The translations under genes and the position numbers were made by a program. Source: a virus (Duplodnaviria > Heunggongvirae > Uroviricota > Caudoviricetes). Taken from it: DNA of 38,733 bases. The notes beneath the pieces are model-generated. The model searched no databases and had not been told where the DNA came from. It saw nothing but the letters and a program-made list of their open reading frames with translations. Positions within the stretch are counted from its first letter, which is position 1, and each line of letters starts with the position of its first letter. Shown here piece after piece: positions 13,495 through 35,563 of the stretch. The stretch lies in IMG/VR virus record IMGVR_UViG_2698536454_000017. One strand, 5' to 3'.

Positions 13495-14004
13495 ATGGAT
13501 GATGTAAAAGAAAAAGATATCCCCGGGTTTGAGGGTATATATAAAGTAACTGAGAATGGAGACATCATTTCATGCCGTAAATCAAAAAAATTATCTCATG
13601 GTATTAAACCAGGAGGATATGCATTTGTCGGTCTATATCCAGGTGGCGGGAAAAGACCATCATATAAAATGGTTCACAGAATTGTTGCAGAAGTATTTGT
13701 TGATAACCCAGATGGAAAGCCGGAAGTTAATCACAAGGATGGAAATAAACTTAATAATAAAGTTGAAAATCTTGAGTGGGTAACGCGAACAGAAAATGCG
13801 AAACATGGATTTGATTCCGGGTTGCTTGTTCATGGTTTTAATCATCACTTCTGCAAACTAACGCCAGAACAAGTGAAATCAATATATAAATCAAAAGGCA
13901 AATACAGAGATATAGCCAAAGAATTTGGTGTTTGTGCGCAGACAGTGTGCAACATAAAAAACAAATCAGCGTACCGACGTTTTTTGGAGGGGATTGATGT
14001 TTAG
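13495..14004 (+). CDS. free-standing HNH homing endonuclease (NUMOD4-like N-terminus)
   Basis: GFEGIYKVTENGDI (NUMOD4-like), VNHKDGNKLNNKVENLEWVTRTENAKH (HNH); markedly AT-rich relative to flanks. Confidence 0.75.
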   Translation: MDDVKEKDIPGFEGIYKVTENGDIISCRKSKKLSHGIKPGGYAFVGLYPGGGKRPSYKMVHRIVAEVFVDNPDGKPEVNHKDGNKLNNKVENLEWVTRTENAKHGFDSGLLVHGFNHHFCKLTPEQVKSIYKSKGKYRDIAKEFGVCAQTVCNIKNKSAYRRFLEGIDV

Positions 14005-15392: not shown

Positions 15393-15467
15393 GGGTCAGT
15401 CGTATAAAGGTCATTACGGAATGCTGTTAACCTTCTTATCGTGGTTCGAGTCCACGCTGTCCCGCCA
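15393..15467 (+). tRNA. tRNA-Asn-like (anticodon GUU), divergent
   Basis: Hand-folded cloverleaf: T-arm CGTGG-TTCGAGT-CCACG, anticodon loop CTGTTAA, 3-prime CCA encoded; one mismatch each in acceptor and anticodon stems, so possibly a pseudo-tRNA. Confidence 0.45.
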
Positions 15468-15472
15468 AACAT

Positions 15473-15548
15473 GCTGGTTTAGCTCCAATGGTAGAGCAGT
15501 CGCCTTGTAAGCGAATGGGTAGCGGTTCAAGTCCGTTAACCAGCACCA
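15473..15548 (+). tRNA. tRNA-Thr (anticodon UGU)
   Basis: Hand-folded: acceptor GCTGGTT/AACCAGC, D-arm GCTC-CAATGGTA-GAGC, anticodon loop CTTGTAA, T-arm AGCGG-TTCAAGT-CCGTT, CCA encoded. Confidence 0.6.
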
Positions 15549-28739: not shown

Positions 28740-30155
28740 ATGGCTACGTGGCAACAGGGTATTAATTCTGGTGGTTTTCTGGCTGGCATCGGTACGCAAA
28801 ATGAGAATGCGCCAAAGGCAAGCGACATTAACGCAACGCTTGGTCTGATCCGCGAAAACAATGAACTGGCTCGCTCAGGTGCAAATAACGTTGGTCTGAC
28901 CGCGTTACGTGGTCTGGCTGGAGTTGCTGATATTTACAATCAGGAACAGCAACAGAAAGCGATTAGTGCGTTCAATAAGGTTCACGCTGATGCATGGGCT
29001 TCTGGTGATCCATCGGGACTATTTAAGTTTGCCAAGGAAAATCCAGCGTTTGTTGCGCAGGCACAACAGGCGTTTTCCGGTCTTAATGAGCAGCAACGCA
29101 ACGATATGGGCGATTTAGCCATGAGGGCTAACGTCGCTCTTTCTCAGGGACCGGAAGCCTACAGTAAATTCATTACTGACAACAAGGACAGGTTAAATCG
29201 CGTTGGTGCTAATGCTGACTGGATGATTCAGACAGGTATCCAGAATCCAGAGCAGCTATCACACATGCTGACTACTATGTCTCTCGGTGCTCTTGGACCA
29301 GAAAAGGCGTTTGCTGTTCAGGATAAGATGGCTGGTCGTGAAATTGACCGAGGCAGGCTGGCAGAGACAATCCGCAGCAATCAGGCTGGCGAGGCACTTC
29401 AGGCGAGAGGGCAAAACCTTTCCTATCAGTCAGCAATGACTGGGCACAATATCGCAGCACAACGCTTGGCTCTGGATCAGCAAGAGTTCGGGTTTAAGAT
29501 GCAGCAAGCGCAGGAAAAGGCTCAGCAGTTGATTAGCGAAGCACCTAAGCTGTCAGTAAATATGGAAAAAGGCATCGAGACGGCTGTAAACAATGCCACA
29601 GCATCATCAAACTCAGCCAATTCCATGAGTGCGCTTGCTCAACAGTTCAGAGCAGAAAAACCAACGACAGGTTTGTTCGGTAACGCACAGAACATGTTCG
29701 CAAAACTTACCGGAAGCGATACGACATTGCGTGATTTGCGCATTCGCCAAAATGCCCTTGTTAACAGTCAGGTTCTTAAATTCCTACCTCCCGGCCCAGC
29801 AACGGATAAAGACGTTGAGATCGTTCGACAGGGTGCGCCAACTGACATGGATAACCCTGAGACGGTCGCAAGATGGCTTGATGCAATGGCAAACCTTGAG
29901 CGACGAAACGCGCAGTTTAATGAGTTTAAAGCCGAGTGGATGAGCGCGAATGGCAACCCTGGACAATCGCGTAATGGCGGTCAGATATTGGGGTTGGATG
30001 TTAAAAAAGGTGAATCATTGGGGAGTGCCGTTAAGCGGTATATGTCAATGAATACTGACGCAGCGCCAGCACAAGATTCGACACCTTCAGGAGAACCACG
30101 GAATCAGGTTGGATCATATACATCAAAATCAGGCATTCAATTTACGGTGGAATGA
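28740..30155 (+). CDS. ejection protein (P22 gp20-like), 471 aa
   Basis: Synteny and identical length to recalled P22 gp20. Confidence 0.65.
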
Positions 30156-32158
30156 TGAAAGTAACTGCAAACGGTAAGACATTTACCTTTCCTGATGGTA
30201 CGAGCACCGAAGATATTGGCACCGCCATTGATGAGTATTTTGCTGGTCAGTCAGCACCAACACAACAAGGTGTTCAGCAATCGCCAGCAGACAACTCACT
30301 TGCATCAGGATATGCACAGCTTGCCACTCAGCAGAAGGAAGGACTAGATCGCTCTGCTGAGCAAGGGGCTGTTTTAGGTGCTGCAATGCGCGATGCCGTT
30401 ACCGGTGAAAGCCGAATGACACCAGAAATGGAGAGACTGCAAAATGTTGGGTCTGCTCCAGAGCTTAATAGCTTAAGCACTGATGCGCTGCGTGCTGGAT
30501 TGGGGCAGCTATTTGGTTCCGACGCTTCACAGGAGAAAATACTGCAAAGTATTGGCGGGAAAATCCGGAAGGATGAGAAGGGAAATTCCATAGTCACCCT
30601 TCCTTCAGGGGAATATGCACTTAACAAGCCTGGTTTGTCACCGCAGGATATAACGTCATTCTTGGCAAATGCTCTTGCATTCACTCCAGCAGGTAGAGCT
30701 GCGTCTGTTGTAGGTGCAACACTAAAATCAGGCGCTACTGATTTAGCTTTACAGGGGGCCACTAAGATCGCTGGCGGTGAGAATGTTAATCCAGTTCAAA
30801 CTGCAATTTCTGCTGGTCTTGGTGGGGTACTGAAGGGTGTAGAAAACACCGCAAGCGCAGTGTCTCGTTCTGCTATGGGTAATATTGCTCCTGAAAAACA
30901 AGCTCAGATTGACTTTGCCAAGCAGAACAACTTGCCACTGATGACAACAGATCTTGTGGAACCGGGAACAAATATTGGTAAGCAAGCACGAGCTATGGCT
31001 GAGCGAATCCCAATAGCCGGAACAGGTGGGATAAGAAATGCACAGCAAAAGGCCAGGGAAGATTTAGTTAGAACATTTAGCGATAATGTTGGTGGAATAT
31101 CTGACGCACAACTTTACCAATCAGCTACTCGTGGTCAGCAGCAATTTATTCAGGCTGCTGGCAAGCGGTACGACAGGATCATCAGTTTGATGGGGGATAC
31201 TCCTGTTGACATCACTGGAACAGTGAAAGCAATTGATGAGCAGATTTCCAAGTTAACTCGCCCAGGAGTATCGCAAGACCGCTCAGCTGTTTCTGTCCTT
31301 CAACAGTTTAGAAATGACATCACCAGCGGTCCAAATAACCTGCAATTAGCTAGAGAAAACCGTACAAACTTACGTAAGCGATTTATGGCAGCACCTGACG
31401 AGGTCGATAGAGATACGCTGGAGAAAGCTGCGCAGTCTGTTTATAACGCATACACAACAGACATGAAAAAAGCGGTTGGCGCAAAACTAGGTGCGAAGGA
31501 AGCGCAAAACATGTCGCGTGTTGATCGTTCTTGGGCAAAGTTCAACGACATGATGAGCAATACACGTGTCCAAAAAGCTATTCAGAGTGGTAAAACAACG
31601 CCAGAAGATGTCACTAAACTAGTATTTAGCCAAAGCCCAGCGGAAAGGGCGCAACTTTATCGATTGCTTGATGATAGTGGGCGTCAAAATGCTAGAGCAG
31701 CACTTGTTCAGCGTGCAATGGATAAGGCGACAAGCGATTCAGGAAAGCTTAGCGTTGAGAAGTTTATTAATGAAATGAAAAGGAATCGGAAGCAGGCTGA
31801 GACGTTCTTCAGAGGAGAGCATGGGAAACAGCTTGATGGGATAATGAAATATCTTGATTCCACTAGACAGGCAGCTACTGCTGCCGCAAGCCCACTAACA
31901 GGGCAAATGGTAGCTGGTCCAGCAGCGCTGATAACAGCTCTTGCGTCTGTTACAAATCCAATGTTTGCAAAAGTTGCGGCAGTTGGAGCTGGTATCGGTA
32001 TGGCTGGCAGGGGCTATGAGTCACGCGCGATGAGGAACGCATTACTAAAGTTAGCAAACACACCAAAAGGAAGTACTGCTTATGATAGAGCGATCAGACG
32101 GGTATCTGAAACTCTTACACCTCTAATTCAGGCTTCAAGTGAGAAAGCCCAGCAGTAA
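30152..32158 (+). CDS. ejection protein (P22 gp16-like), 668 aa
   Basis: Synteny; large A/G/Q-rich protein preceding tailspike region. Confidence 0.65.
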
Positions 32159-32166
32159 AAAGTTGG

Positions 32167-32487
32167 TTAGCGGTTGATGGTTGCTTTTTTCGGGTCATAC
32201 CATCTCGGCCATTCTTTCAGGAATGGGAATGAGTCGGGTGCGTGGTTCTTTTTGTACGATTTAAGCAGCCTTAACCGCTCAATCGCACACTCATAAACCT
32301 CTTGTTGCCCTGTAGTCATCTCGGTCCATGAAAGGTGATCCATTGATAAGACAACGTTTTCAGCTTCTTTTATGAGGGCGTTTTTATTTCTCACCGCAGC
32401 AGCATGGCTGACAGAGCAATCCTGCCATATTCTTAAAAGCCAAATAGCTAAGCAGATGAAAAAAATGGTAGATAGCGATATATACAC
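32167..32487 (-). CDS. small membrane-anchored protein (about 106 aa; start uncertain)
   Basis: GTG 32487..32485 with AAGGAGG SD 5 nt upstream; N-terminal TM helix YISLSTIFFICLAIWLL; longer ORF-track version would overlap the divergent gene. Confidence 0.4.
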   Translation of the reverse strand: MYISLSTIFFICLAIWLLRIWQDCSVSHAAAVRNKNALIKEAENVVLSMDHLSWTEMTTGQQEVYECAIERLRLLKSYKKNHAPDSFPFLKEWPRWYDPKKATINR

Positions 32488-32517
32488 ACCAACCTCCTTA
32501 GTTTTGAGCAGGATACC

Positions 32518-32883
32518 ATGAAAAAAGTTAACATTGGAAACGTACCAAAGATGCTCGTTCCGCTCTTTGAGAGCGGTACAATTGTGTTTTGTAGAGACTT
32601 TCCAGAATGGCAACGCCTGCATCAAAAACTTGGCGTTGACGTGCATGACTCTGACGCCAACGGAGCGTCTCATACAATGAGTAGCGAGAATGGTGTTTTG
32701 CATGTGATAGGCGTGTTCAATGGCAAACTATCTACTATTGCCCATGAGTGCGCTCACATGGCATTCGATATCTGCTCAAGGGTAGGTGTTGATGTTGAAC
32801 CAGGAAGAGCCAACGAGACTTACTGCTACTTAATGAGCAGGCTTGTTGAGTTCTGCGAGCGACATATCAAAAAGCCGGAGTGA
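32518..32883 (+). CDS. small HExxH-motif protein (putative Zn-metallopeptidase-like, 121 aa)
   Basis: STIAHECAHMAFD motif with downstream Glu (EPGRANETY); ATG 32518. Confidence 0.5.
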   Translation: MKKVNIGNVPKMLVPLFESGTIVFCRDFPEWQRLHQKLGVDVHDSDANGASHTMSSENGVLHVIGVFNGKLSTIAHECAHMAFDICSRVGVDVEPGRANETYCYLMSRLVEFCERHIKKPE

Positions 32884-32896
32884 ACCGGCTTGATTA

Positions 32897-33076
32897 TTAC
32901 TTTTTGCTGTCTGGAGTTCGCTTATCCAATACCCAGCCATGACCTGGCTTTGTTGTTGGTGGAAGCCTTTCGTTGTCCTTGACGGTGGCAAAATTGTCTT
33001 TCTTACCGCCGCGCGGGCCAACTTCTTGGTATATTCCGCCGTTTTTTCCTGTGTTTTCACCTGGTTTTTTCGCCAT
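32897..33076 (-). CDS. small Lys/Gly-rich hydrophilic protein (59 aa)
   Basis: ATG 33076..33074 with GAGGT SD 5 nt upstream; MAKKPGENTGKNGGIYQEVGPRGGKKDNFATVKDNERL... Confidence 0.4.
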   Translation of the reverse strand: MAKKPGENTGKNGGIYQEVGPRGGKKDNFATVKDNERLPPTTKPGHGWVLDKRTPDSKK

Positions 33077-33237
33077 GATATACCTCAACACACACCCGTT
33101 ATTGGGCGATTAAATATTGATCTCATTTTATAAGTAGTCAATATGGTCTTGGTAATGTCAAAAATTAACCAATCGTCATCTGGGGTATCCATAAAAACCC
33201 TTCAGTACATAACTACTGACAGATAACCAACGCAACG

Positions 33238-33261
33238 ACCCAGGTTCGGCTGGGTTTTTTT
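33238..33261 (+). terminator. rho-independent terminator upstream of tailspike
   Basis: ACCCAG-GTTCGG-CTGGGT followed by T7. Confidence 0.5.
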
Positions 33262-33319
33262 ATGCCCAAAATTCACCGTAGCCATGCTGCGGCCATTCCT
33301 TGTATCTGGAGCAAATCAA

Positions 33320-35563
33320 ATGACAGATTCAATAAATGCCAATGTTGTAGTGAGTATGCCTTCGCAACTCTTCACTATGGCTCGTTCTTTTAAAGCTGTA
33401 GCCAATGGCAAAATTTATATCGGTAAAATTGACACTGACCCGGTAAATCCTGAAAACCAGATTCAGGTTTATGTGGAGAACGAAGACGGTTCTCACGTTC
33501 CTGTTTCGCAACCAATCATCATTAACGCTGCTGGTTATCCGGTATATAACGGACAGATTGCCAAATTCGTAACTGAGCAAGGCCATTCTATGGCTGTTTA
33601 TGATGCGTATGGTGCACAGCAGTTCAAATTCCCAAATGTGCTGAAGTATGACCCTGACCAACTCAGGCAAGATCTTGCATCTCAAGGAGGTGTTAATCTG
33701 GTAAACGGAGCTATCTCACAGGAAGATCTTGTTTTGCAGTCGATCACAAAAATTCCAAGTTATGATAATTCTAACGTAGTCCAGGCATGGCGCGATAGTG
33801 TTGCGACCTACGGGTATGTTTACTTCTCTAATCATTCAAAAAATCAGATGGTGTACACCGTACCGTCTACAGCTGCTAACGCTTCTTTCCTTGCGAACAG
33901 TAAAGTAATCATTGATAAAAATGTCACCCTGAGATTCGACAGTGATCTGTACTCACTGTTTAAATCGTTGCAGTACGAGGGGGAGGGTACGTTTGAATTT
34001 ACGCACCTGAACTTTAAAGCAACCGGTGGAGAAGTGGATTACCTGGCTAAGCAGGCCATCCTCAACCGAAACCCTATTCGCATGAAGCGAGTGGAATGGT
34101 CAGATTGTAAAGTTTATTCCATAAATGGTGACACGTTCTTCTATGAAGGTGAAGTCACCATATCCTCAGATAGCGCAGCTATCTTCCCCTTAACTACTAA
34201 CCGTACAACAGGCCTGTTCGCACCAATAGATATTGGAGAGCATATTTCTGCACATATTCGCATGGAATCTCAGGCCGCCTCAGAAGTTGGGATTGTTCTG
34301 CGATGCTCTGGTGGTTGGATGATGTTCTATGGGGCACCAGGTGCTACACAGTGGTCTTATAGACAGAAACCAATTGGTGGTCCAGTAGCAGAAGGAACCC
34401 CATTCCCGCTGCCAGGAGGTTTACTGTCGTACGCCCCGGGCAAAGCAACCGTTGGCGTATCACTGCAAGGTAAAAACTGGGCGCAGATAACGATGAATGG
34501 CGTTGGGATACGTTTGCCCTTTGATACTGGTGATGTAGGGGATGTATACGAAGTTGGGTTTGTTGCACTGACCCCGGCATCTGGAGGTGCTGCGCGTGTA
34601 ACTGGATTATGCAGCTACACCTCTGATAATGGCGTGCACGGTAAGCCTCCACTTAATATCCTTATCCACGGGGATAGTACAGCTGAGGATTTCATTTCCG
34701 CGTTCAGCTCGTACATTCCGCAATTAATGGATGGAGCGAACGGCCACCGTTCATATAGCATTGTAAACAAGGCAGTTGCCGGACAGACAATGAGGCAACA
34801 GTTAGATCTCCTGAAGGCTCAGGGGCCGGGTGATGCTTACATCGTTATTATGGTTGCCGGAACTAACGAAGGGCAGGCAAACCAAAACGGCGATTATATG
34901 GCGTCACTGATAGATGAGTTTGTCTTATATTGCAATGGCCTTGGTCGTATCCCTGTTTGGGTTGAGCCGTGGATGTGGTATAGCCAGTCATTTATTGGCG
35001 GTGCTGGTCAACCATCAGCAAATTACGATGGTGTTGCGGAGTTGCGCGAGGCTGGTAAACGCCAGATGATGAAATATGGCAATAACGTCATTTGTGTAAC
35101 AACAACTCACCAGCTCCCGGCCCCATATCCAGAGTATTTCAACACGCAATACGACCCACTTCTGCGTGATGACATTCACCAAAGCCAGTTAGGGTATCGT
35201 CTGTATGCGGAAATTATCTGCTCTGCCATTATCGACTGGTGGTCGCGTGTTGATTACACGCCAAGAGCAGCTGTTCAATGGTGGGCTGGAACAAACGTAA
35301 CAGTACAGGCACCGTCAAGTTTAACTGCCAATTCAATTAATATTAAACTGGCAGCCACTTCATTTGCGAATGGCAATACTGTTCTAACGCTTCCGAGGTG
35401 GTGCAGACCAAAAGTAACCAAAAATGTCCCTGTACCGTTCACTGCTGATGGCGTTTCATTTGGCATGGCAATGGCCACCATTAATGCTTCAACAGGACAA
35501 ATATCGATTGAAGGGTCCACAACTACATCTCCAACGTTCTACATAGATGCGACATGGGCGTGA
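33320..35563 (+). CDS. tailspike: P22-type head-binding N-terminal domain fused to an SGNH/GDSL esterase receptor domain
   Basis: N-terminus [60 protein letters not shown] matches recalled P22 gp9 residues 1-120; SGNH blocks [19 protein letters not shown]. Confidence 0.85.

Follow-up and report, generated by a model that had tools for sequence, protein, structure and literature searches.

A three-gene accessory interval of a P22-like phage as a probable HK620-type, immI-deleted ant moron with a predicted gluzincin-like hydrolase

The 38,733-nt stretch of tailed-phage DNA analysed here (IMG/VR record IMGVR_UViG_2698536454_000017, Caudoviricetes; hereafter the window, meaning the whole stretch) contains three small genes at 32167-33261, bordered on the left by a homologue of the P22 ejection gene 16 and on the right by a homologue of the tailspike gene 9. 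They raise the question whether the immI region known from P22 has been replaced here by a new module, or whether a known arrangement is seen in one of its variants. The original prediction took the former view and described a three-gene moron, in which a protein with an HExxH motif, reminiscent of the ImmA/IrrE-type anti-repressor peptidases, is flanked by a membrane protein and a small Lys/Gly-rich protein. All the sequence features that it described are present, i.e. the three open reading frames with their order and strands, the HExxH motif and a terminator, and the interval, lying between genes 16 and 9 at the immI position, does consist of accessory (moron) DNA. We propose, with a probability of about three in four, that it represents the "ant moron" of P22-like (Lederbergvirus) phages in an HK620-type, immI-deleted version, composed of two units and deletion scars rather than of a single three-gene unit.

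On the left, a plus-strand gene at 30152-32158 encodes a gene 16-type DNA ejection (transfer) protein of 668 aa (phrog_770, "DNA transfer protein", E=1.6e-177), and on the right the gene 9 tailspike (Pfam Head_binding, E=2.5e-63) occupies 33320-35563 on the plus strand; its likely start is the ATG at 33320 rather than 33284, as the former aligns with the gene 9 starts of HK620 and P22. The three coding sequences between them (321, 366 and 180 nt) are not chance open reading frames, since the PGAP annotation of E. coli MFDS1019527 has precisely these three and each has a full-length match to a PHROG family (phrog_10450, 6e-51; phrog_1365, 2e-39; phrog_3202, 1e-31). None of the three proteins is matched by an NCBIfam model, and sequence searches of the PDB returned nothing significant for any of them.

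Judged by sequence comparison, hkcC and orf59a of P22 account for two of the three genes, and the remaining one belongs to the many swappable membrane-protein cassettes found in the sieA slot. The stretch from sieA to orf59a, comprising the PsieA leader, hkcC, the terminator and orf59a, has a nucleotide identity of 97.4% to P22; across hkcC-hkcD-tANT-gene 9 the identity to HK620 is 95%, and the hkcC-orf59a stretch is 95-97% identical to its counterparts in both phages. HK620 (AF335538) exhibits the order hkcB-hkcC-hkcD(orf59a)-tMNT-tANT-gene 9, in which gene order, strands and terminators are the same as in the window, orf59a and the terminator associated with the ant remnant are both retained, and mnt, arc and ant are likewise absent. 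The differences from HK620 concern the leftward gene, which is unrelated to HkcB, the gene 16 allele, the receptor domain of the tailspike and the tMNT hairpin, which is degraded in the window. In P22 the ant moron/immI region (sieA, hkcC, orf59a, mnt, arc, sar, ant) occupies the same place between genes 16 and 9, whereas the window has a cassette for a 106-aa protein instead of sieA and, through a deletion of about 1.5 kb, is devoid of mnt, arc, sar and ant. The trio was originally placed where P22 carries sieA and mnt/arc/ant, but P22 itself has hkcC and orf59a there, between sieA and mnt; as these two of the three genes coexist in P22 with an intact immI, nothing has been "replaced". A mapping of the proteins to P22 immI homologues, which the original prediction had named as its own refutation, applies to these two. 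The interval is thus an already described P22-like accessory region in its HK620-like form without mnt/arc/ant, and these comparisons rule out a new three-gene insert. The region was named the "ant moron", a moron in rapid flux, in an earlier study (PMC2629481), which lists hkcC and 59a among its genes of unknown function; our literature searches for hkcC, orf59a and YjzC retrieved mentions in genome annotations and no functional study. In itself the locus is an ordinary, highly mosaic accessory region with the layout of HK620. What is new concerns the HkcC family with its invariant tetrad, the co-travel of hkcC and orf59a into unrelated siphoviruses, and the YjzC-like character of Orf59a.

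The deletion has left a recognizable trace. In tblastn searches of the window, Mnt, Arc and Ant have no match, only the 3' remnant of ant and t_ant being left, and neither sar nor any other Rfam family is detected in 31900-33500, even at E<=1. Alignment with HK620 and with the two P22 segments identifies 33142-33236 as the scar: what remains of the P22 orf59a-mnt intergenic region/mnt 3' flank, with a degraded form of the HK620 tMNT hairpin, is fused there to the 3' end of ant. The scar is followed by an intrinsic terminator on the plus strand (33237-33261, hairpin and T-run, upstream of gene 9), found by the terminator scan and aligned to the sequence downstream of P22 ant; it is the homologue of P22 t_ant and of HK620 tANT, which is annotated as "associated with remnant of P22 ant gene; tANT". 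Because of its strand and this homology, it does not close the minus-strand orf59a, as had been supposed for 33238-33261. Instead, hkcC and orf59a have in common a bidirectional intrinsic terminator hairpin at 32872-32891, detected by the scan on both strands between the two convergent genes; it overlaps the hkcC stop codon and carries the annotation "bidirectional terminator tORF59A" in HK620, "t mnt" in P22.

The gene orf59a (HK620 "hkcD"; 32897-33076, minus strand) encodes a basic, Lys/Gly-rich protein of 59 aa (pI 9.9, 13 Lys and Arg, 9 Gly) that is 98% identical to P22 Orf59a and matches phrog_3202 with E=1.3e-31. It starts either at the ATG at 33076 or at the GTG at 33091, the latter giving 64 aa. 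Upstream of it, at 33113-33141 on the minus strand, the consensus scan finds a sigma-70-like promoter candidate (TTGACT-17-AATATT, 9/12 matches) with a sequence identical in P22, HK620 and MFDS1019527; as the promoter scan as a whole did not exceed the shuffled expectation (3 found vs. 2.9 expected), this candidate is to be taken as a lead only. Orf59a aligns with nearly the whole 55-position Pfam model of the YjzC proteins (PF14168, model positions 8-54), but scores 19.1 bits, short of the gathering cut-off (25), and five orthologues likewise score 16.5-19.8 bits. One homologue has a precomputed match to PF14168, several are named "YjzC family protein" in their source records, and proteins with this name in Alpha- and Gammaproteobacteria are 60-80% identical to Orf59a. 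We refer to Orf59a as YjzC-like.

The gene hkcC (32518-32883, plus strand) encodes a putatively cytoplasmic protein of 121 aa, 120 of which are identical in P22/HK620 HkcC. Its residues 1-121 align with positions 3-120 of the 127-position profile of phrog_1365 (E=1.7e-39), and the family comprises 556 cluster representatives at E<=1e-3, matched by no Pfam model. The motif AHECAHMAFD is present, its HECAH core corresponding to residues 76-80 (nt 32743-32757). Among 64 diverse members, with identities down to 24%, the only invariant columns are H76, E77, H80 and E100 (the last at nt 32815-32817), which confirms the metallopeptidase-type motif noticed originally and, by its composition, constitutes a gluzincin-type signature. 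Gluzincin metallopeptidases include enzymes with thermolysin-type spacing and "minigluzincins" of ~110 aa. HkcC resembles them in the predicted placement of HExxH on a helix and in a candidate Glu ligand located 20 residues past the second His and preceded by Asn ("NE"). The AlphaFold2 model of HkcC (pLDDT 93.4) has the topology b-b-a-b-b-a-a, with a sheet, a backing helix, the HExxH helix and the Glu helix in this order, and lacks a close neighbour among solved structures; comparisons with solved zincins gave no significant match in either sequence or structure. In the model, the order of secondary structure elements is like that of gluzincins and minigluzincins, as is the size (~120 aa), and HkcC is predicted to be a minimal gluzincin-like zinc hydrolase. 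A relationship to PhageMetallopep (PF18894) was considered and rejected (hhalign probability 1%). The longer members of the HkcC family possess only low-complexity K/E-rich tails and no informative domain fusions.

The two genes common to the window, P22 and HK620 form a conserved convergent pair, from which the left gene is excluded as a swappable cassette; the trio, regarded originally as one unit, thus breaks up into a pair and an exchangeable neighbour. The pair is present in 70 of the 80 P22-like contigs, the remaining ~10 having hkcC without orf59a, and extends far beyond P22-like phages: orf59a lies convergently ~15-30 nt past hkcC in siphovirus tail operons of Rosenbergiella, Klebsiella, Xenorhabdus and Proteus, and the same arrangement occurs in the early region of a Pasteurellaceae prophage and in a metagenomic contig whose HkcC is only 43% identical. 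Approached from the other side, 23 of 60 metagenomic loci with a YjzC-like gene have HkcC 20 nt away. The linkage is not obligate, as HkcC relatives at ~40% identity occur without orf59a, and YjzC-like genes are often solitary.

It is possible, albeit in our estimate somewhat improbable, that hkcC and orf59a constitute a self-contained two-component pair of the toxin/antitoxin-like or defence/counter-defence kind, in which Orf59a is the inhibitor or substrate of HkcC and the role of the pair is independent of the ant moron. This idea agrees with the preservation of the convergent pairing and the common terminator in at least four unrelated genomic contexts, with the proximity of HkcC to YjzC-like genes in metagenomes mentioned above, and with the parallel divergence of the two proteins (100/60/46/43% identity for HkcC vs. 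98/78/65/about 55% for Orf59a). However, the latter is weak as evidence, because Orf59a evolves slowly everywhere; moreover, each gene is also found alone, location on opposite strands with separate transcription is atypical for toxin/antitoxin pairs, and at E<=1 none of the three proteins matches a PADLOC defence family.

The proposal that immI has given way to a novel three-gene moron, and that the central protein of this moron is an anti-repressor metallopeptidase of the ImmA/IrrE type controlling induction or immunity, fares worse, and we regard it as unlikely. In its favour, the HExxH motif exists and is invariant, and the local context of the motif (TIAHExxH) is similar in both families. 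In addition, even in siphoviruses the hkcC-orf59a pair is accompanied by Arc/Mnt-like repressors and by antirepressor-type genes (KilA-N/P63C, Bro-N, pRha), and YjzC-like genes diverge from neighbouring HTH_3 and Peptidase_M78 pairs in Sphingopyxis and Maricaulis as well as in 8 of 60 metagenomic loci, so that genes of both peptidase families recur beside YjzC-like genes and in repressor/antirepressor neighbourhoods. Against it stands, besides the presence of two of the three genes next to the intact immI of P22, the failure of HkcC to join the ImmA/IrrE family (Peptidase_M78, PF06114), membership in which we reject. HkcC of the window does not match PF06114 even at E<=1, none of the 64 family members does at E<=0.01, and the only hit among ~70 members scanned was that of a single protein with E=0.099 and 12.9 bits vs. 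a cut-off of 22. The alignment of HkcC with a bona fide M78 peptidase by hhalign is limited to 15 columns around HExxH, at a probability of 30%, i.e. to similarity at the level of the motif. HkcC, with its 121 aa, is also shorter than the M78 proteins and differs from them in the position of the Glu ligand. The open reading frames in 32167-33261 include no cognate HTH gene (XRE/ImmR/DdrO-type) that could supply the substrate, the neighbours of hkcC being the membrane cassette and orf59a, and the late-operon orientation of hkcC is ill-suited to an induction switch.

It is very improbable that hkcC is not functional in these phages and is conserved only as a carrier of PsieA and t_mnt and as a homology "linker" for the recombination of cassettes. 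Such a role would account for the 97-100% nucleotide identity across Salmonella and E. coli phages, synonymous sites included, and for the P22 reference records, which annotate a promoter and a terminator there and no coding sequence, but not for a family of 556 clusters with an invariant H-E-H-E tetrad that occurs in contexts without sieA or mnt, for an open reading frame intact in all 80 viral contigs examined, or for a confidently predicted fold.

The left gene (32167-32487, minus strand; PGAP WP_000275950, ORF14 of phage N7, phrog_10450 with E=6e-51) encodes a protein of 106 aa from a GTG start codon at 32487. Its sole hydrophobic segment, at residues 3-21, is a putative N-terminal transmembrane helix (Kyte-Doolittle 19-residue maximum 2.05), and its family, comprising 14 clusters, shares the motif KKNHAP..EWPxW. 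The protein is similar to neither of the proteins that occupy its position in the two reference phages. Homology to HkcB was rejected (BLASTP E=2.4 over 21 residues), as was homology to SieA, with which BLASTP gives no alignment. The SieA proteins (types A/B/C) contain the conserved motif FnRYPnEAnnFNK (preprint 10.1101/2023.08.15.553423), which is absent from the 106-aa protein, and SieA has three transmembrane helices compared to one in the protein from the window. What the two share is the slot, the Shine-Dalgarno sequence and GTG junction, the predicted inner-membrane location and the leader: the 85 bp at 32488-32572 (minus strand), which include the Shine-Dalgarno sequence AAGGAGG (complement of 32493-32499) and the equivalent of PsieA, are identical in 84 of 85 positions to the 85 bp upstream of sieA in P22. 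In P22 this putative promoter is annotated at 13861-13891 of AF527608, and in the window its equivalent sits within the first codons of hkcC. The 85 bp with sieA alone conferred exclusion when placed in single copy in the chromosome (preprint 10.1101/2023.08.15.553423). The conserved module starts exactly at the GTG of the leftward gene, and at this common junction 80 IMG/VR contigs carry at least 12 unrelated cassettes, nearly all envelope-targeted, including SieA, HkcB, a lipoprotein and proteins with signal peptides. The gene 16 allele to the left of the 106-aa gene is shared by phage N7, E. coli MFDS1019527 and five IMG/VR contigs; the gene is tied to one gene 16 allele in 6 of 6 cases, which may merely reflect adjacency.

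The least probable alternative of all, that the minus-strand gene is the 178-aa open reading frame at 32167-32703 overlapping hkcC, as the original prediction had allowed, can be dismissed as an artefact: although it is the longest frame and some database entries call forms of 114-178 aa, its N-terminal 72 codons are antisense hkcC and are found identical upstream of every unrelated cassette in the sieA slot, the strong Shine-Dalgarno sequence precedes the GTG at 32487, homologues at 65-77% identity have 103-106 aa and start with MY(I/L)S, and both PGAP and the N7 annotation use 106 aa. According to our analysis, the 236-aa "sieA" call of UAB_Phi20 (quoted in PMC4837284) exemplifies the same antisense extension.

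How might an ant moron of this composition work? In the first unit, which corresponds to the sieA slot, the 106-aa protein would be anchored in the inner membrane by its single N-terminal helix. Its gene would be read leftward from the conserved PsieA region, Shine-Dalgarno sequence and GTG that drive sieA in P22, and the protein would be made by the prophage and act at the cell envelope. It is most likely a superinfection-exclusion or other lysogenic-conversion factor, perhaps similar in mechanism to SieA, which blocks the delivery of incoming phage DNA, without being homologous to it. The second unit would be the convergent hkcC/orf59a pair with its one common bidirectional terminator. HkcC would be a small cytoplasmic zinc hydrolase of the gluzincin type, with Glu100 as the third ligand at the start of the next helix. 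Its synthesis is probably late and due to read-through of the late operon, because our scan predicts no sigma-70 promoter on the plus strand upstream of hkcC and because, in all contexts examined, genes of the HkcC family point the same way as tail, lysis or terminase genes. Orf59a would be read in the opposite direction; in P22 it is the distal gene of the mnt transcript expressed by the prophage, and in the window it is left with the conserved promoter-like element. We envisage that HkcC and Orf59a act on the same pathway, in the simplest version of which HkcC, as a late protease, would remove or process Orf59a made by the prophage, or the target of Orf59a. The remainder of the interval would be the scar of the mnt-arc-ant deletion, ending in the old ant terminator.

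It is tempting to go further, although we advance the following only as a tentative and rather speculative generalization. HkcC could be the founding P22-borne member of a widespread group of stand-alone gluzincin-like hydrolases of ~120 aa, made late and coupled to Orf59a; YjzC-like proteins in general could be governed by HExxH proteins, the pair could be a mobile immI-like arm, and the sieA slot a socket. If this is true, YjzC-like proteins would be effectors or substrates of HExxH proteases, namely of HkcC in enterobacterial phages and of the XRE and M78 pairs in Alphaproteobacteria. Late operons of both podo- and siphoviruses would receive insertions of a mobile antirepressor module, whose conserved left arm would be the hkcC-orf59a pair, and the sieA slot would be an expression socket with a fixed promoter and start codon that accepts unrelated envelope proteins in exchange for one another.

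For P22, a classic model phage, the present analysis provides two genes of the best-studied regulatory region with identities that can be tested, a minimal HExxH+E hydrolase for hkcC and a YjzC-like partner for orf59a. Few small proteins encountered here are as conserved as the YjzC-like ones, with 60-80% identity from Alphaproteobacteria to enterobacterial phages, and the repeated location of their genes beside two different families of HExxH peptidases is a concrete lead to their function. Finally, the at least 12 unrelated envelope proteins placed behind one leader and start codon, with the 106-aa protein among them, form a catalogue of candidate factors of superinfection exclusion or surface conversion.

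The window represents an E. coli phage of the P22-like group (Lederbergvirus) with a mosaic genome, whose early region has HK620 as its nearest relative and which also carries two plus-strand tRNA genes side by side (15393-15464 and 15473-15545; Rfam RF00005, 45.9 and 61.5 bits). The three ORFs that the original prediction placed between the gene 16-type ejection gene (30152-32158, phrog_770) and the tailspike gene (Head_binding domain, E=2.5e-63) are borne out: all have full-length PHROG matches (E=6e-51, 2e-39 and 1e-31), PGAP calls the identical three CDSs in E. coli MFDS1019527, and the same trio is present in an IMG/VR contig (L023). They comprise a minus-strand gene for a 106-aa protein (32167-32487, GTG start at 32487), the plus-strand hkcC (32518-32883), which encodes a 121-aa product with the motif AHECAHMAFD, and the minus-strand orf59a (32897-33076, or 32897-33091 in a 64-aa reading), followed by a plus-strand hairpin with a T-run detected by the terminator scan (33237-33261). 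We adopt the 106-aa reading of the leftward gene because its homologues have 103-106 aa (65-77% identity, all starting with MY(I/L)S), in agreement with the PGAP and N7 annotations; the longer, 178-aa ORF that had been considered as an alternative overlapping the HExxH gene is rejected, since its extension is mere antisense of hkcC. Likewise, Orf59a is read as 59 aa because its homologues start with MAKKPG, and the corresponding ATG at 33076 is preceded by GAGG. The neighboring tailspike ORF (33284-35563) probably starts at ATG 33320 rather than at 33284. Its receptor part, past the P22 head-binding domain, shows a weak GDSL/SGNH esterase-like match (PF13472, E=0.0014, residues 463-640; phrog_17606), which suggests an O-antigen-deacetylating rather than a glycosidase-type tailspike.

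The trio had been thought to stand where P22 carries sieA and immI. This premise is wrong for two of the three genes, because P22 itself has hkcC and orf59a at this place (order: 16, sieA(-), PsieA, [hkcC], t_mnt, orf59a(-), mnt(-), arc, sar, ant, t_ant, 9), and the published description of this "ant moron", a region said to be "in a state of rapid flux", already names hkcC and 59a among the P22 genes without an assigned function (PMC2629481). The same study recorded degraded ant genes in HK620, whose annotated order is gene 16, hkcB(-), hkcC(+), the bidirectional terminator tORF59A, "hkcD" (equivalent to P22 orf59a, -), tMNT, tANT and gene 9. Homology to proteins of the P22 immI region, named in the original prediction as the outcome that would speak against it, is thus largely what we found. 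According to megablast against phage genomes, window positions 32484-33170 are 97.4% identical to P22, and the identity to HK620 is 95% and continues to gene 9. HkcC differs from its P22 and HK620 counterparts at one residue (H43 versus Q43), and Orf59a shares 98% of its residues with the P22 protein. In the P22 reference records (NC_002371 / BK000583, 13861-14223) only a "sieA promoter" and an "mnt terminator" are annotated, with no CDS; the hkcC ORF beneath these features is intact and its product is identical to the window protein at 120 of 121 positions.

Downstream of orf59a the window aligns with two P22 segments, the orf59a-mnt intergenic region (33077 to ~33180) and the 3' end of ant with t_ant and the gene 9 leader (~33200 to 33300); therefore the phage, like HK620, has lost mnt-arc-ant (~1.5 kb). 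The terminator pointed out in the original prediction is the former ant terminator. The tMNT hairpin of HK620 (plus strand, CCCACCGTCAGGTGG followed by a T-run) has become unrecognizable by mutation in the window (33150-33190), while its flanks are conserved. The locus is an immI-deleted ant moron, in which a cassette gene follows the sieA leader on the left, and a bidirectional terminator separates the two members of a conserved pair, the convergent hkcC and orf59a. We put the probability of this identity and anatomy at about 95%. Neither the locus nor its set of genes is new, and HK620 has exactly this layout.

A four-way alignment revealed that the conserved hkcC-orf59a module begins precisely at the start codon of the leftward gene (minus-strand AAGGAGG-TTGGT-GTG, GTG at 32487), to the left of which the window, HK620 and P22 are mutually unrelated. 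This common Shine-Dalgarno and GTG junction lies ~31 nt upstream of hkcC (32487-32517 in the window; P22-like contigs L006-L085). Among 80 IMG/VR contigs with 99-100% identical hkcC, the ORFs starting at the junction represent at least 12 unrelated cassettes: SieA (164 aa), HkcB (109 aa, and a 107-aa variant), a further protein with a transmembrane (TM) helix and a coiled coil (109 aa), the window type (106 aa; five contigs and MFDS1019527), small two-TM proteins (62 and 75 aa), signal-peptide proteins (68, 99 and 129 aa), a TM protein (149 aa), a lipoprotein with an LLAGC lipobox (160 aa; 18 contigs) and one soluble protein (140 aa). Nearly all are targeted to the envelope by a TM helix, signal peptide or lipobox, and the slot resembles a fixed socket for the expression of envelope proteins. 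Single-copy sieA with just 85 bp of upstream sequence suffices for exclusion (10.1101/2023.08.15.553423); these 85 bp comprise the 30-nt intergenic spacer and the first 55 nt of hkcC, and 84 of them are identical in the window. The near-identical leader and the envelope-type cassettes therefore lead us to infer that the prophage produces the 106-aa protein as it does SieA, and that the protein acts at the envelope; we give even odds to its being a prophage-expressed envelope or exclusion factor. A single helix lies at its N terminus (residues 3-21), and its C-terminal domain, KKNHAP..EWPxW, is conserved. Homology to SieA or HkcB was considered and rejected, as no similarity was found; the SieA motif is absent. 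Its family comprises only 14 clusters, found in E. coli, Salmonella and E. fergusonii, and the gene co-occurs with the gene 16 allele of the window in all six cases, and likewise in N7, a linkage that could be functional or mere adjacency.

The HExxH protein had been likened to ImmA/IrrE peptidases, a resemblance that did not extend beyond the motif. The PF06114 profile does not match the window HkcC and gave one match, far under threshold, among ~70 family members; hhalign against a genuine M78 protein aligned 15 columns around HExxH alone (probability 30%), and no HTH partner gene is present at the locus. HkcC has no Pfam, NCBIfam or PADLOC match. When 1.84 billion cluster representatives were searched with a profile, 556 relatives were retrieved at E<=1e-3, mainly stand-alone proteins of ~120 aa. 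Across an alignment of 64 relatives, with identities as low as 24%, no columns but H76, E77, H80 and E100 are invariant; by sequence, these four would make up the full set of zinc ligands and catalytic residues of a gluzincin. Glu100 is preceded by Asn and lies 20 residues past the second His, a spacing that we take to be of the thermolysin type. The confident AlphaFold2 model built from the same alignment (pLDDT 93.4; all five models at least 93) predicts the order strand, strand, helix, strand, strand, HExxH helix, Glu100 helix, i.e. that of a minimal zincin. HkcC is most aptly described as a new and uncurated family, predicted to comprise minimal zinc hydrolases, and we consider its metal-dependent hydrolase activity somewhat more probable than not. 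Other P22-like phages and enterobacterial prophages carry another type of HkcC ("Orf129" in ST64T and L), with 38-42% identity, after the lysis genes and immediately upstream of the terminase gene or of one for a PF18894 "PhageMetallopep" protein (L191 2501-2890, epsilon34 gene 70; L092 5001-5372; L093 5001-5387); the window has the ant-moron copy only.

The promoter scan predicted no plus-strand promoter upstream of hkcC, and the spacer to the variable cassette, at 30 nt, is too short to hold a conserved one. The HkcC-family gene is co-directional with the surrounding lytic genes in all contexts examined: in the P22-like late operon, in siphovirus tail operons after the tube or chaperone genes and ahead of the tape measure gene, between lysis genes and terminase (epsilon34, ST64T, L, mEp044-type phages, Kluyvera and Citrobacter prophages), and ahead of a portal gene. 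These features suggest that hkcC is expressed late through read-through.

Well beyond P22-like phages, relatives of hkcC are followed at a distance of 15-30 nt by a convergent orf59a-like gene: in Rosenbergiella and Klebsiella (HkcC 60-62% and Orf59a 76-78% identical), Xenorhabdus and Proteus (63% and 78-80%), the early region of a Pasteurellaceae prophage (46% and 65%) and a metagenomic contig (HkcC 43%, with an Orf59a-like 59-aa protein). A hairpin separates the two genes in the one distant pair inspected at the sequence level. In siphovirus prophages of Klebsiella, Xenorhabdus and Proteus the pair resides in the tail operon (L087 10241-12369; L089 5836-6594; L090 5656-7837), with Arc-like repressor and KilA-N/P63C or Bro-N genes. 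Since siphovirus pairs adjoin Arc/Mnt-like repressors and antirepressor-type genes (KilA-N/P63C, Bro-N or pRha), the immI-like module seems to be mobile as a whole between podovirus and siphovirus late operons. The pairing is not obligatory: hkcC occurs without orf59a in 10 of the 80 P22-like contigs and in relatives at ~40% identity. Functional coupling of HkcC and Orf59a is a tentative and rather unlikely proposition.

The strikingly conserved Orf59a family (60-80% identical, from enterobacterial phages to Alphaproteobacteria; core PGxxTGKNGGIYQEVGPRGG...LPPT...W..RTPDSKR) is labelled "YjzC family protein" in source records, and Orf59a scores 19.1 bits against Pfam YjzC, below the cut-off of 25. 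Among 60 metagenomic loci with adequate flanks, HkcC lies 20 nt from the YjzC-like gene in 23, an M78 peptidase is nearby in 8, mostly with an adjacent HTH gene, and neither is found in 29. In Alphaproteobacteria (e.g. Sphingopyxis and Maricaulis) and in marine and soil metagenomes, the YjzC-like gene has a divergent neighbor, a pair of HTH_3 and Peptidase_M78 (ImmA/IrrE-type) genes (L100 1984-3177; L101 1970-3180; L148, L167, L170, L185, L186, L189), an arrangement that looks like a small effector controlled by a repressor and a protease. In Yersinia prophages it stands alone, flanked by lysis and terminase genes, and in other chromosomal contexts it is solitary. The association with two kinds of HExxH proteins is a lead rather than proof.

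We propose that the 106-aa protein would be expressed from the prophage and hinder an incoming phage at the inner membrane, or alter the envelope otherwise. Orf59a would also be produced in the lysogen; whereas P22 orf59a is on the Pmnt transcript that terminates at t_mnt, the window gene may use a conserved candidate promoter, TTGACT-17-AATATT (33141-33113). HkcC would be a zinc hydrolase produced late, whose target may be Orf59a or Orf59a's own target. We found no functional literature on YjzC, hkcC or orf59a. Three features appear to be absent from the literature searched: the H-E-H-E signature throughout the HkcC family and the orphan fold predicted for HkcC, the conserved pairing of hkcC with a YjzC-like gene across phage types, and the start-codon-precise exchange of cassettes in the sieA slot. 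Inferred as they are, these features would lift the locus, modestly, above the trivial.
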